The notes beneath the pieces were generated by a model. It saw nothing but the letters and a program-made list of their open reading frames with translations. It was not told the origin of the DNA and searched no databases. A stretch of DNA of 64,000 nucleotides. It comes from a phage. Shown here one piece after another: positions 39 to 63,256 of this stretch. The position numbers were made by a program, and so were the translations under genes. Each line of letters opens with the position of its first letter. Positions within the stretch are counted from its first letter, which is position 1. The stretch lies in the NCBI GenBank assembly GCA_026188615.1, contig GCA_026188615.1_4525.1. One strand, written 5' to 3'.

Positions 39-275
39 TTAACCACTTACTGGTGTAGGGGTAAACATTGCAGCGTTCTTAGTTTTCCAGTCAGCTGCAT
101 CAGAAACTACAGTAGAATAAGCTGCCTTTTCTGATGGAAAGATTTGGTAATGAGAATCTGCAATCCGATGTTCGTTTGAATAAATCTCAAACGGCACAGA
201 AACTTCCATACCTTTAACTTCTTTACCTTCACCAGCAGGATGCGTAAAGGTTTTGATGTTTACATAACCACCCAT
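39..275 (-). CDS. soc: small outer capsid protein Soc
   Basis: 78-aa ORF; GYVNIKTF...HYQxFPSEKAAYSTV matches T4 Soc from memory; RBS AAGGAG; late promoter TATAAATA upstream. Confidence 0.85.
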   Translation of the reverse strand: MGGYVNIKTFTHPAGEGKEVKGMEVSVPFEIYSNEHRIADSHYQIFPSEKAAYSTVVSDAADWKTKNAAMFTPTPVSG

Positions 276-57580: not shown

Positions 57581-57886
57581 TTAATTTTTCCAACTTAACA
57601 ACTTGTAGTGTCCTTCATTCATACGTGGTTTATCCCAAGAAATACTAATATATGATTCGCTGTCAATAGAAGTCGCCGGGTTTTTCTCTACCGTAAGACC
57701 TTCACTTTCCAGCCATTCAATAGTATTTGCGCATAAATCGGAAGAACACCTCATCGGGAACCGGCAAGATTTTTCACCTTTAGCTGCAGTGTTATACATC
57801 TTTTCTAAAATACGCTTTTGCACGTTTTTAAAAATAGTTTCAGCAGATTCTTCAGATTTTTTATTCAGTTCAGTGTAAAGACTCAT
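57581..57886 (-). CDS. hypothetical protein
   Basis: 101-aa ORF. Confidence 0.5.
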   Translation of the reverse strand: MSLYTELNKKSEESAETIFKNVQKRILEKMYNTAAKGEKSCRFPMRCSSDLCANTIEWLESEGLTVEKNPATSIDSESYISISWDKPRMNEGHYKLLSWKN

Positions 57887-57914
57887 AATATTTTCCTCAT
57901 GTTTTTATAGGTCT

Positions 57915-57943
57915 ATAGTAACACATCTAGGGAAGAAGTAAAC
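57915..57943 (-). promoter_or_regulatory. early-type promoter
   Basis: GTTTAC-N17-TACTAT just after terminator 57974..58001. Confidence 0.5.
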
Positions 57944-57973
57944 ATCTTTATGAAATATTTTTATGCCCTAGAC

Positions 57974-58001
57974 ACCAAAAAGCCCCAACCTTTCGGAAGG
58001 G
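57974..58001 (-). terminator. rho-independent terminator
   Basis: AGCCCC...GGGGCT then T5; near-copy of terminator at 43376..43404; downstream of RNA region. Confidence 0.65.
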
Positions 58002-58052
58002 GCTATGCCTTGCGGCAACCTTGTCGGGGTTCCACCTGCTAAGGCAAGTGTT

Positions 58053-58144
58053 TGTACGAAACGCCGGGATTTGAACCCGGTTATCAAGTAGTTGACGCTA
58101 CTCAATATTTTTAAAAGGCCATATCTCGACCATATCCGAACGTT
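58053..58144 (-). ncRNA. tRNA-like structured RNA element
   Basis: T-arm CCGGG-TTCAAAT-CCCGG followed by 7-nt strand pairing with CGGAACG 77 nt upstream; no D or anticodon arm could be folded. Confidence 0.3.
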
Positions 58145-58315
58145 CCGTCAAAAACGCTACTCGGCTTACGGCAAAGATATTTCCTCGAATCGATAATTCG
58201 GTGCGCCGTTTCTGCTGTGATGTAAGGGGATATTAACAAATCGTAAAGATTTATTAAGACCAGTCCTTACTCAGGGAACATCAGTCCGACGACTTACCGG
58301 TAGCGACCCGGCTTC

Positions 58316-58711
58316 TTATTTTGGCATATCATCAATTTGCTCTCGACGCCGACGCCATAGATTAATCGCTTCATTAACACATTCGGCGTTTGGTATATGA
58401 CGGCAATAATATAATGATTCGCGTTTCTGGAACCGATGTTGCAATGGGATTTCGTTTAAAAGGTCTTTACGGTCAAAGTATTCAAAACTAGTTAACCCGG
58501 AACGGTTTTTAATGAACTTCCAATGACCGAATTCATTTTGAACATAGATGTAATCGGCATGCTGATACAGCGAATTAATCAATCGATGAGAAATAACTGT
58601 ATCATATTCGTTAAAATAAAACGTTAAATCATGAACTACCAGATAAATATTGCCTTTCATATTTTCCTCACTTAAAGTTGGTGCCTCTAGAAAGATTTGA
58701 ACTCTCACCAT
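58316..58711 (-). CDS. hypothetical protein (start uncertain)
   Basis: 131-aa ORF; likely begins at internal MKGNIYLVVHDL. Confidence 0.45.
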   Translation of the reverse strand: MVRVQIFLEAPTLSEENMKGNIYLVVHDLTFYFNEYDTVISHRLINSLYQHADYIYVQNEFGHWKFIKNRSGLTSFEYFDRKDLLNEIPLQHRFQKRESLYYCRHIPNAECVNEAINLWRRRREQIDDMPK

Positions 58712-58739
58712 TAACCTTAGAATGATTATATGCTATCCA

Positions 58740-59405
58740 TTACACTATAGAGGCAATTAAATTATTTACAATATCTTCTTTATAAACTTCAGCATAATGA
58801 AGTTCATATATTTCCCATCCTAATGATTTTATAATATCATGGCGTTCTTTATAATAAGGGGCCAAAATCTTTTTCTTAGGATTGGAGTAATGTTGGTTTC
58901 CATTAACTTCAATAATAATCTTTTTATCTATTAAAGCAATATCCGTGCAATACGCTCGGTTTTTAACCGGTTGGTATTCTTCAATAAATGAAATTCCATT
59001 TTCTATTAATTTAGATTTCAAAAATTCACAAGGCACAGATTTAAATTTTGTATTTTTCTTCCAAGGATGTTTATCGGGGTTTTCATTCAACCATTTTTTC
59101 CGAGCATTAGATATTTTTATTCTAGCTTCCTCAGAGTGTTCTCTACCTAATGAAGCGGCTGACAATTTTTGTCTAGTCTCTTCCGAAATTACTACAGGAA
59201 CACCAGTCTTTTTAGATACAACATACTGGTTTAAATTACCTGAAGCTATACGTGCTTTATTCATTGCTGCAATGGCTGATTTAGAACTTTCTTTATACAA
59301 TTCCAATTTAGGGTTGGATTTACACCATCTAGTGTGGTTAGCCATCCATCCTTTAGGTTTATTAGAAATATCAAATTCCATATTACAATGTTTACAAATG
59401 CTCAT
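58740..59405 (-). CDS. putative endonuclease (Zn finger, NUMOD3-like helix, C-terminal Vsr/DUF559-like PD-(D/E)xK domain)
   Basis: Track ORF starts on TTG; ATG MSICKHCN...; C-terminal IIEVNGNQHY...ERHDIIKSLGWEIYEL; sits beside the tRNA genes. Confidence 0.5.
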   Translation of the reverse strand: MSICKHCNMEFDISNKPKGWMANHTRWCKSNPKLELYKESSKSAIAAMNKARIASGNLNQYVVSKKTGVPVVISEETRQKLSAASLGREHSEEARIKISNARKKWLNENPDKHPWKKNTKFKSVPCEFLKSKLIENGISFIEEYQPVKNRAYCTDIALIDKKIIIEVNGNQHYSNPKKKILAPYYKERHDIIKSLGWEIYELHYAEVYKEDIVNNLIASIV

Positions 59406-59415
59406 TACCAATTAT

Positions 59416-59479: not shown

Positions 59480-59551
59480 CTGGCGCACTTGGACTCGAAC
59501 CAAGATAAAGAAGTTAACAGCTCCCCGTAATAACCTTTATACGATGCACCA
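59480..59551 (-). tRNA. tRNA-Asn (anticodon GUU)
   Basis: Cloverleaf folded by hand: U1-A71 7-bp acceptor, D loop with GG, anticodon loop CUGUUAA, T arm CTTGG-TTCGAGT-CCAAG; no encoded CCA. Confidence 0.7.
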
Positions 59552-59557
59552 TTTGTT

Positions 59558-59632
59558 TGGTGACCCTGGCTGGTTTCGATCCAGCTACCTATCAGTTATG
59601 AGCTGACAGCTCTCCCATTGAGCTACAGGGCC
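59558..59632 (-). tRNA. tRNA with CAU anticodon (Met or Ile2-type), CCA encoded
   Basis: Acceptor GGCCCTG/CAGGGTC, D stem GCTC/GAGC, anticodon loop CUCAUAA, T arm GCTGG-ATCGAAA-CCAGC, 3' ACCA. Confidence 0.7.
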
Positions 59633-62521: not shown

Positions 62522-63256
62522 TTACCTTAAGATTTTTTCAATTTTAGAATAAAGCTCTTCTAACGAGCCGTCGTTTGTAATAACTAAGTCGCCTTCTTCA
62601 ATAGGCAACCCAGCTTCTGTAATATGTTTATCAGTGGATTCCGTACCAGAGCGAACCACATGAATAACTGTAGCACCCATCGCTCTAGCGGTTTCCATTT
62701 CATGGACTTGGCGTGTATCGGTCACAACGTAGTAATCGAAATCACTTCCAATATAATCCATATAGTTTAATGCAAAAAGCTTAACCCAATACATACGGTC
62801 AAATAAATTAACGACAACATCCGTACCGAGGGCTTGCATAAGACGGCGGATTGACCATGTGTCGTTGATATTATTTATAGCTTCACGCAGGGCTTCATAC
62901 GGTTTAATATCTAGATATGAATACCCACCTTCTAATGATGATAATACTTTAACATTATTAATTGGCAAATATTGACTTTGTAAATAAATTAGCGCTTCTT
63001 CCAATAATTCAATAACATCCAACTTATTGAGATTTAATGGTGTTTCACGGTCGTATCCAATGCCTTCAAAGTATTCGTATTTCAACTCTGTGAATACATC
63101 AGGATTTTCAGCATGCCAAAATTGCCACGCTGTTGCTAGAGCGTCTTTAATTGGATATGCTAATTGGTATTTTACGGATTTAAAGTTTGAATTGATGTAA
63201 TCAGCAGTAGTGTCTTTACCACTACGTTTGATGCCACTTAAAAAGATTAGCTCCAT
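62522..63256 (-). CDS. 1: deoxynucleoside monophosphate kinase gp1
   Basis: 244 aa; IFLSGxKRSGKDTTAD, WSIRRLMQALGTD, MGATVIHVVR, ITNDGSLEEL match T4 gp1. Confidence 0.93.
   Translation of the reverse strand: MELIFLSGIKRSGKDTTADYINSNFKSVKYQLAYPIKDALATAWQFWHAENPDVFTELKYEYFEGIGYDRETPLNLNKLDVIELLEEALIYLQSQYLPINNVKVLSSLEGGYSYLDIKPYEALREAINNINDTWSIRRLMQALGTDVVVNLFDRMYWVKLFALNYMDYIGSDFDYYVVTDTRQVHEMETARAMGATVIHVVRSGTESTDKHITEAGLPIEEGDLVITNDGSLEELYSKIEKILR

Follow-up and report, generated by a model that had tools for sequence, protein, structure and literature searches.

What kind of RNA ends in a perfect transfer RNA (tRNA) T-arm and lies in a stable-RNA region, yet cannot be folded into a cloverleaf? 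This question is raised by one locus in a stretch of 64,000 nucleotides (nt) of phage DNA (GenBank assembly GCA_026188615.1, contig GCA_026188615.1_4525.1), the whole of which we call the window. An earlier note, made from the sequence alone, had pointed to positions 58053-58144 as a tRNA-like 3′ domain and had named three candidates: a counterpart of the two small stable RNAs that T4 encodes beside its tRNAs, a degenerate class II tRNA, or a processing substrate. Our analysis indicates that the element is in all likelihood the T4 gene rnaC itself, encoding species 1 RNA, in a close relative of T4, and that the RNA would form a cloverleaf-like junction of four helices without an anticodon. The source genome is a Tequatrovirus (T4-like), and the locus is an already known one rather than a new one. 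T4 species 1 RNA has been known since the 1970s.

Identity with T4 rnaC and the predicted fold

The assignment to rnaC is carried by alignment and gene order. A megablast search with positions 57950-58700 retrieved 764 phage records, nearly all from Tequatrovirus and its relatives, and by BLAST the region is held by 806 phage records. The T4 reference genome (NC_000866) annotates two misc_RNA features, rnaD (71053-71171) and rnaC (70908-71046), right after tRNA-Arg, and the minus strand of window positions 57960-58330 aligns with the T4 stretch spanning rnaD, rnaC, and the trailer at about 95% identity. Taken separately, rnaC is identical to T4 rnaC at 136 of 139 positions (97.8%, full length and gapless), rnaD at 106 of 120 (88%), and the trailer, comprising a hairpin and a terminator, at 77 of 85 (91%). 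The three substitutions in rnaC affect a mismatch position in the long arm, a G·U pair that becomes A-U, and T-loop position 57, and all of them are neutral for the structure. The two genomes also share the order tRNA-Arg, rnaD, rnaC, trailer hairpin, and terminator, on the same strand relative to the tRNAs; the window differs in having an extra open reading frame (ORF) of 114 amino acids (aa) between tRNA-Arg and rnaD. With this alignment and the same place after tRNA-Arg, the suggestion of a counterpart of the two T4 stable RNAs is borne out. The interval originally marked does lie within rnaC, but of the 139 nt of this RNA it takes in no more than the 3′ two thirds. The region had also been described as free of ORFs, which agrees with our finding that only mechanical short ORFs occur between the terminator and the stop of the upstream ORF at 58316.

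The predicted fold has a minimum free energy (MFE) of -49.3 kcal/mol and a z-score of -4.49. For comparative analysis, we aligned 27 distinct homologues, which represent nine or more genera, and the pair counts given below for both helix models were also taken from this alignment. RNAalifold recovered the same four helices from it, with compensatory changes in 22 of 35 pairs. Across the whole model, 16 pairs carry double changes, compared with 9.0 ± 1.5 in column shuffles (none of 500 reached 16) and 0 to 4 in slid controls, and 91.7% of the model cells are paired.

The helices, whose coordinates are collected in Table 1, are arranged as follows. P1, an acceptor-like stem, joins the two ends of the RNA; its 3′ strand runs into P4, and its 5′ strand runs into P2, in both cases without a linker. 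At the place of the D-arm stands P2, a hairpin of roughly 64 nt, which occurs in two unrelated sequence versions (T4 on the one hand, and Melville, PEi20, and VPA32 on the other) that have the same length and the same apical loop; in its apical stem, each of the five pairs has undergone compensatory change, with 99.3% of the cells paired. P3 occupies the place of the anticodon arm, with compensatory changes in all eight of the pairs tested and a stem that RNAalifold lengthens to 10 base pairs (bp), and since its loop has 6 nt, it would not present an anticodon. P4 is the T-arm, which the earlier note had described correctly as perfect: CCGGG-UUCAAAU-CCCGG is found on the minus strand, with CGUUUCG directly 3′ of it. 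The middle pair of its stem covaries (UA in 13, GC in 10, and AU in 2 homologues), and the T-loop motif GGTTCRAATCC has one exact match in the 64-kilobase window, the sole other match at one mismatch or fewer being in tRNA-Asn. The T-arm is thus more than a chance occurrence.

We also observed a 9-nt direct repeat, GAGUAGCGU, on the minus strand, with one copy in P2 (RNA 32-40, 58154-58162) and the other in P3 and its loop (RNA 91-99, 58095-58103). In homologues of the VPA32 type, the apical stem and loop of P2 are complementary to loop 2 and the 3′ strand of P3 over about 15 nt, and the unconstrained MFE structures of these homologues form this duplex. The repeat and the duplex may reflect an alternative conformation or an origin by duplication.

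The partner of the 3′ end and the complementary loops

With what does the 3′ strand that follows the T-arm pair? It had been proposed that this 7-nt strand pairs with CGGAACG further upstream. The complement does exist, with six Watson-Crick pairs and one G·U possible and 77 nt between the strands, but it is neither conserved nor covarying. Among the aligned homologues, this helix shows no compensatory change at all, one of its pairs is broken in 14 of 27, and two others are broken in 8 and 6; in homologues with the second version of the P2 arm, it is impossible. Forcing it raises the free energy from -49.3 to -36.0 kcal/mol, a cost of 13.3 kcal/mol, and its ensemble probability in the full RNA is approximately zero. 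By our own estimate, the chance of finding a G·U-tolerant complement of CGUUUCG in about 120 nt is near 0.2, and the pairing is no more than chance. P1, in contrast to this helix, has five positions that are invariably Watson-Crick paired and two that are invariably U·U, and one of its pairs covaries (AU in 11, GC in 16) while being paired in 27 of 27. It was chosen independently by the MFE fold and by RNAalifold, with pair probabilities of 0.79-0.97. As judged from sequence comparison, then, the conserved partner of the 3′ strand is the 5′ end of rnaC itself and not the internal CGGAACG. The tandem U·U in the middle of P1 (RNA 5, 6 / 133, 134; 58188-58189 / 58060-58061) is invariant in 38 of 38 homologues, next to the pair that covaries, and may be a recognition feature.

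These results bear directly on whether rnaC could be a tRNA or a protein-coding gene. ARAGORN, run on the window, called no tRNA or transfer-messenger RNA (tmRNA) over rnaC, and Rfam 15, searched at gathering thresholds and, for 57850-58800, at E ≤ 10, placed no tRNA or other family there, Y RNA/YrlA and the known phage small RNAs included, which agrees with the earlier statement that no D or anticodon arm could be folded. Only the three tRNAs of the window reach the gathering threshold; over rnaC, there are sub-threshold hits to isrK (opposite strand, E = 0.89) and to mascRNA-menRNA (a 17-nt T-arm, E = 8, chance level), and because all of these are sub-threshold, Rfam 15 appears to have no family for rnaC or rnaD. 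A degenerate class II tRNA of 92-94 nt would have CGGAACG/CGUUUCG as its acceptor, P3 as a long variable arm, and CUUUUAA as an anticodon loop (Lys, UUU). The 7-nt complementarity is indeed present in the window, the acceptor helix is perfect in Enterobacter phage CW742, and ARAGORN calls the same fold tRNA-Lys(ttt) in the T2-like phage G29, with GenBank deposits for G29 and G4507. Nevertheless, beyond the failings of that helix given above, its bases sit in the stem in which five of five pairs covary, CUUUUAA falls in the linker that varies most in the alignment and changes freely, and the T4 RNA, as annotated, has its start 46 nt further upstream, so that we regard this reading as extremely improbable. 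That rnaC is instead a small protein-coding gene, as annotated in GenBank (F48 gp274, CPT_Marfa_145), we consider next to impossible. Mechanical ORFs of 42-45 aa overlap the region, and hypothetical protein coding sequences (CDSs) have been deposited over homologues, but helix substitutions are compensatory, the length shifts by single nucleotides between 138 and 142, the ORFs of one P2 version are not kept in the other, and T4 annotates a sequenced RNA here.

In the public records, homologues of rnaC are annotated as tRNA-Lys(ttt) in G29 (MK327940; our locus L002, 767-860) and G4507 (NC_054919), and as hypothetical protein CDSs in F48 (L018, 416-553) and Marfa (L022, 252-389). These annotations look like misannotations of a structured RNA. 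The 94-nt call in G29 is obtained with ARAGORN only when a run of A residues is 1 nt shorter, and since it depends on this single-nucleotide indel, it is best treated as a false positive in GenBank.

An unexpected feature of the fold concerns two of its hairpin loops. Loop 1, at the apex of P2, and loop 2, in P3, are exact reverse complements, and all six loop-loop pairs are complementary in 27 of 27 aligned sequences. The same is true in 38 of 38 distinct homologues, 7 with loops of the Marfavirus type and 31 with those of one other type; this set includes sequences gathered by patterns that were confined to the 5′ motif and the T-arm with the 3′ strand and left the loops unspecified. In the Marfavirus lineage, UUGGCG stands opposite CGCCAA, a double compensatory change from A-U to G-C. 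We estimate the chance that two among three hairpin loops are perfect 6-nt complements at about 10^-3. From these observations, we infer an intramolecular kissing-loop pseudoknot that would lock the rnaC fold, an architecture that may not have been described before, the structural papers of the 1970s aside. Known kissing-loop complexes, such as TAR/TAR* and RNA I/RNA II of ColE1, similarly involve two 6-nt hairpin loops with full Watson-Crick complementarity; in rnaC, however, a single molecule carries both loops, and their pairing is proposed from complementarity and one covariation.

How tRNA-like is the resulting RNA? It shares with canonical tRNAs (RF00005) a T-stem of 5 bp with a 7-nt UUCRAAU loop, contiguous with a terminal stem of seven positions made from both ends of the molecule, as well as a four-helix junction, a location in a tRNA operon, and a U-rich leader that mostly ends in U. 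It differs from them in lacking a D-arm, D-loop, and U8/N9 linker, in place of which it has the long P2 hairpin, in lacking a 7-nt anticodon loop, in having helices 2 and 3 joined by a linker of about 10 nt, in its "variable region" of a single nucleotide, in the two U·U of the acceptor-like stem, and in its 3′ flank, which is UACAA rather than NCCA. This flank, U-ACAA, is found in all homologues except those of Marfavirus, in which it reads U-CCA-AAC, that is, an encoded discriminator followed by CCA (L018, L022), a hint that, in at least one lineage, the 3′ end may be treated in a tRNA-like manner. Like tmRNA, which is a substrate of RNase P, rnaC has an acceptor stem formed by its 5′ and 3′ ends and joined to a T-arm, with the remainder of the molecule replacing the D and anticodon arms. 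It does not have the G3·U70 alanine pair, the encoded CCA, or the tag reading frame of tmRNA, and it is much shorter (139 versus about 360 nt). The vtRNAs/TMERs of murine gammaherpesvirus 68 and mascRNA are small, stable, tRNA-shaped RNAs that are excised by the tRNA machinery and not used in translation, but they receive CCA and retain a cloverleaf that can still be recognised, with a (defective) anticodon arm.

Operon context, distribution, and biogenesis

In the window, rnaC, rnaD, and the three tRNAs all lie on the minus strand; T4 has eight tRNAs, compared with these three. In both genomes, rnaC is the final gene of the operon and is followed by a conserved hairpin and then by the terminator. 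The latter was missed in our terminator consensus scan because its stem contains two U·U, and the consensus scan for sigma-70 promoters and terminators gave no excess over shuffled sequences. No T4 late-promoter motif, TATAAATA, occurs between 58320 and 62871, the nearest upstream being at 62872-62879(-).

Table 1. Features of the rnaC locus in the window. RNA position p corresponds to window position 58194 - p; the ends of rnaC and rnaD are transferred from the T4 annotation coordinates.
Feature	RNA position	Window position	Strand	Basis or remark
rnaC (species 1 RNA) orthologue, 139 nt		58055-58193	-	Homology to T4 rnaC
P1 5′ strand, CGAUUCG	2-8	58186-58192	-	Acceptor-like stem; pairs with 131-137
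P2, irregular arm at the D-arm place	9-78	58116-58185	-	Base AGG/CCU; apical stem 38-42/49-53
Loop 1, UUGACG, apical loop of P2	43-48	58146-58151	-	Exact complement of loop 2
CGGAACG, previously proposed acceptor 5′ strand	47-53	58141-58147	-	49-53 in apical P2 stem, 47-48 in loop 1
Linker, A-rich with a variable part	79-86			Conserved AAAAU motif extends into the first nucleotide of P3
P3 hairpin, 10-bp stem	87-96/103-112	58082-58107	-	6-nt loop CGUCAA at the anticodon-arm place
Loop 2, CGUCAA, loop of P3		58092-58097	-	Exact reverse complement of loop 1
Linker, one nucleotide	113
P4, T-arm, CCGGG-UUCAAAU-CCCGG	114-130	58064-58080	-	Sequence; covariation
P1 3′ strand, CGUUUCG	131-137	58057-58063	-	Then U138-A139 (58056-58055), then CAAACAC
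rnaD (species 2 RNA) orthologue, 120 nt		58200-58319	-	Homology to T4 rnaD
Trailer hairpin, CACUUGC-CUUA-GCAGGUG		58033-58050	-	3′ of rnaC; predicted fold; conserved with T4
Intrinsic terminator of the tRNA/stable-RNA operon, GCCCCUUCC-GAAA-GGUUGGGGC then U5		57977-58003	-	Sequence and fold; aligns with the T4 terminator
tRNA-Arg(UCU)		58679-58754	-	ARAGORN and Rfam; upstream member of the transcription unit of rnaC
tRNA-Asn		59480-59551	-	ARAGORN and Rfam
tRNA-Met		59558-59632	-	ARAGORN and Rfam

Two ORFs lie among these genes. The 114-aa ORF between tRNA-Arg and rnaD (58316-58660, minus strand) matches phrog_3355, of unknown function, with E = 5e-50, and has no match in Pfam; its TAA stop (58318-58316) overlaps the first bases of rnaD. 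A CDS is annotated at a similar position in G29 (L002, 253-603), and in T4, tRNA-Arg abuts rnaD with 1 nt between them. Between tRNA-Asn and tRNA-Arg, where T4 has the homing endonuclease gene segB, the window has an ORF of 223 aa (58740-59411, minus strand), the 3′ end of which overlaps the first 15 nt of tRNA-Arg. Its matches are weak (RAP, DUF559, NUMOD3, and phrog_9084, "homing endonuclease", at E = 1.6e-5), and it may represent a different homing endonuclease in the segB niche.

Homologues of rnaC were gathered by BLAST, using the window and the divergent Melville, F48, and PEi20 sequences as queries, and by pattern scans of IMG/VR and metagenomes. The gene is present in Tequatrovirus, Gaprivervirus, Kagamiyamavirus, Winklervirus, Moonvirus, Karamvirus, Gelderlandvirus, Kanagawavirus, and Marfavirus, and all copies are 138-142 nt long. 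BLAST with the three divergent queries found nothing beyond enterobacterial Tevenvirinae and Marfavirus. In IMG/VR, no more than 10 loci matched a pattern in which loop 2 and the T-arm were specified; two looser patterns gave at least six new true homologues, and among the matches listed, most were due to chance and none had a new variant of P1 or of the loops. The metagenome scan gave 12 loci, all inside known lineages.

The distribution of the two stable RNAs suggests, from gene content, that rnaC and rnaD are independent modules. In the Dhakavirus phages MX01, dhaeg, and IME341 (L152, L153, and L155, around positions 400-600), rnaD, the trailer hairpin, and the terminator are kept while rnaC is exactly missing; rnaD is joined directly to the trailer hairpin, with ...GGCGCACCGA on one side of the junction and ACACUUGCC... 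on the other, and rnaC is therefore cleanly absent as a module. In Gaprivervirus phage TH40 (L154), the sequence that comes after rnaD is unrelated. The reverse case, rnaC without rnaD, is seen in Karamvirus, Moonvirus, Kanagawavirus, Gelderlandvirus, Winklervirus, Kagamiyamavirus, and Marfavirus. As for rnaD itself, it has no T-arm, its fold has a z-score of -2.75, and it contains a conserved 5′ hairpin, CCGG-GUCGCUA-CCGG, together with a long-range stem, its central hairpin being completely different in IME341. In T4, rnaD followed by an encoded A gives ...GCGCA-CCA, a tRNA-like 3′ end (L001, 2048-2056), and the 3′ end in the window reads ...GCGCA-CCG (58195-58201, minus strand).

Outside the T4-like phages, the surroundings of rnaC bear on how it might be made. 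In Kagamiyamavirus, Moonvirus, Karamvirus, Gelderlandvirus, and Winklervirus, and in Erwinia phage COW86c, it lies tightly between two tRNAs, which, in genera other than Marfavirus and the T4-like phages, are Trp or Phe upstream and Gly or Trp downstream. The leader in these arrangements has 6-7 nt and mostly ends in U, and the trailer has 7-13 nt and starts with UACAA. These tRNA-flanked contexts, together with the acceptor/T-arm minihelix, would fit excision by the tRNA-processing machinery, and the earlier proposal of a processing substrate is accordingly a plausible one, as far as can be told from sequence context. In such a scheme, rnaC would be co-transcribed with the tRNAs, and host RNase P would cut its 5′ end upon reading the acceptor/T-arm minihelix. 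The 3′ end could be produced in Tequatrovirus by cleavage in the trailer and in the other genera by the RNase P cut of the next tRNA, followed in both cases by exonuclease trimming back to the stem. In T4, an RNase III site distal to species 1 in the trailer presumably helps to form its 3′ end; the trailer hairpin is kept in the Dhakavirus phages, which do not have rnaC. It has been reported that T4 rnaC is part of the primary transcript of the tRNA operon (PMC2330249), and the processing of T4 tRNA precursors has been described (PMC11143913).

Possible functions of rnaC

What might such an RNA do? The hypothesis that we prefer, and that we hold only tentatively, is that rnaC acts as a non-decoding tRNA mimic, which would occupy or titrate a host or phage factor that binds tRNAs instead of serving as an adaptor in translation. 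Possible targets would include an enzyme of processing or modification, or a defence nuclease directed at tRNAs. The RNA combines a tRNA-like acceptor and T-arm with the lack of an anticodon, it is stable and abundant, its details are preserved between genera, and it comes and goes as one unit within tRNA clusters.

Several observations weigh against this picture and the structure on which it builds. The loop-loop covariation comes from a single lineage event, and the invariant loops could therefore be motifs recognised by proteins or targets. In P1, covariation is limited to one pair, whose two states possibly reflect a single event, and two positions never pair. The mature ends are copied from T4, the 5′ U would put the RNase P site one nucleotide off the canonical +1, and the 3′ end is UA(CAA), not NCCA. 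In two homologues of the Winklervirus type, from Serratia phage LC53 (L020) and from a 175-kilobase IMG/VR contig (L060), a non-canonical T-loop (UGCAUCC or UGCAUGC) replaces UUCGAAU while the T-stem is kept, so that a canonical T-loop is not universally required and the case for a strict tRNA-like elbow is weakened. Given its clean absence from Dhakavirus, rnaC must be dispensable in some lineages, and deletions of the T4 tRNA region are viable on laboratory hosts. Finally, the function of rnaC has been called unknown in three publications: one on T4 that says so of its small stable RNAs (PMC3014915), a 2022 omics study that placed the T4 stable RNAs among the late RNAs and verified them by Northern blot, RNAC being detected as late and stable (PMC9697503), and an evolution study from 2025 in which rnaD of a T4-like phage acquired a convergent single-nucleotide polymorphism during adaptation to a semi-permissive host (PMC12685909).

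Other roles have to be considered alongside mimicry of tRNA. It is possible, if fairly unlikely, that rnaC is a relic tRNA-like "punctuation" element without a function in trans, which would persist only for directing processing by RNase P and exonucleases through its acceptor/T-arm minihelix and for shielding, by its compact fold, the tRNAs beside it or the 3′ end of the operon transcript. Its constant position in, or appended to, tRNA clusters would be explained in this way, and its clean loss from Dhakavirus, the viability of the T4 deletions, and the reports of an unknown function are all compatible with it. Nevertheless, a mere spacer would hardly keep two invariant complementary loops, an invariant U·U tandem, and the equally invariant GAGGA and GGCCUU motifs, nor a length fixed at 138-142 nt across at least nine genera while the stems turn over, and T4 rnaC accumulates as an abundant stable RNA (PMC9697503). 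We think it improbable that the loops pair between molecules, either to form a dimer or to bind another RNA of the host or the phage. Both are invariant loops that the secondary structure leaves exposed, their complementarity would suit dimerisation equally well, and P2 and P3 are so unequal (about 25 versus 10 bp) that closure within one molecule would probably be demanding geometrically. An external target, however, would require neither complementarity between the loops nor their joint change in Marfavirus, the fixed length of P2 in two unrelated versions suggests a geometric constraint within the molecule, and no trans-acting small RNA has been characterised in T4 (PMC3014915).

The tRNA-mimic hypothesis can be taken one step further, to a reading that is rather unlikely as it stands but specific. 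In this form, rnaC would be a purpose-built tRNA decoy, in which an acceptor/T-arm minihelix with invariant U·U is attached to a body closed by a 6-bp kissing loop. It would travel as a mobile module in the tRNA clusters of enterobacterial phages, and its target, which it would titrate or misdirect, would be a host factor able to recognise the shape of tRNAs, such as a tRNA-targeting abortive-infection nuclease, a nucleotidyltransferase, or a processing enzyme.

For the annotation of phage genomes, the main consequence is that the tRNA-like 3′ end of rnaC should not be annotated as a tRNA. What is gained for this abundant phage RNA is a structure supported by covariation and a loop-loop interaction that can be put to the test; the RNA is a discrete module found between tRNAs in many genera and cleanly absent from Dhakavirus. 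If rnaC should turn out to be a decoy, this would explain the 50-year-old puzzle of T4 species 1 RNA, and it would be an RNA-based addition to the counter-measures that phages deploy against tRNA-directed functions of their hosts.

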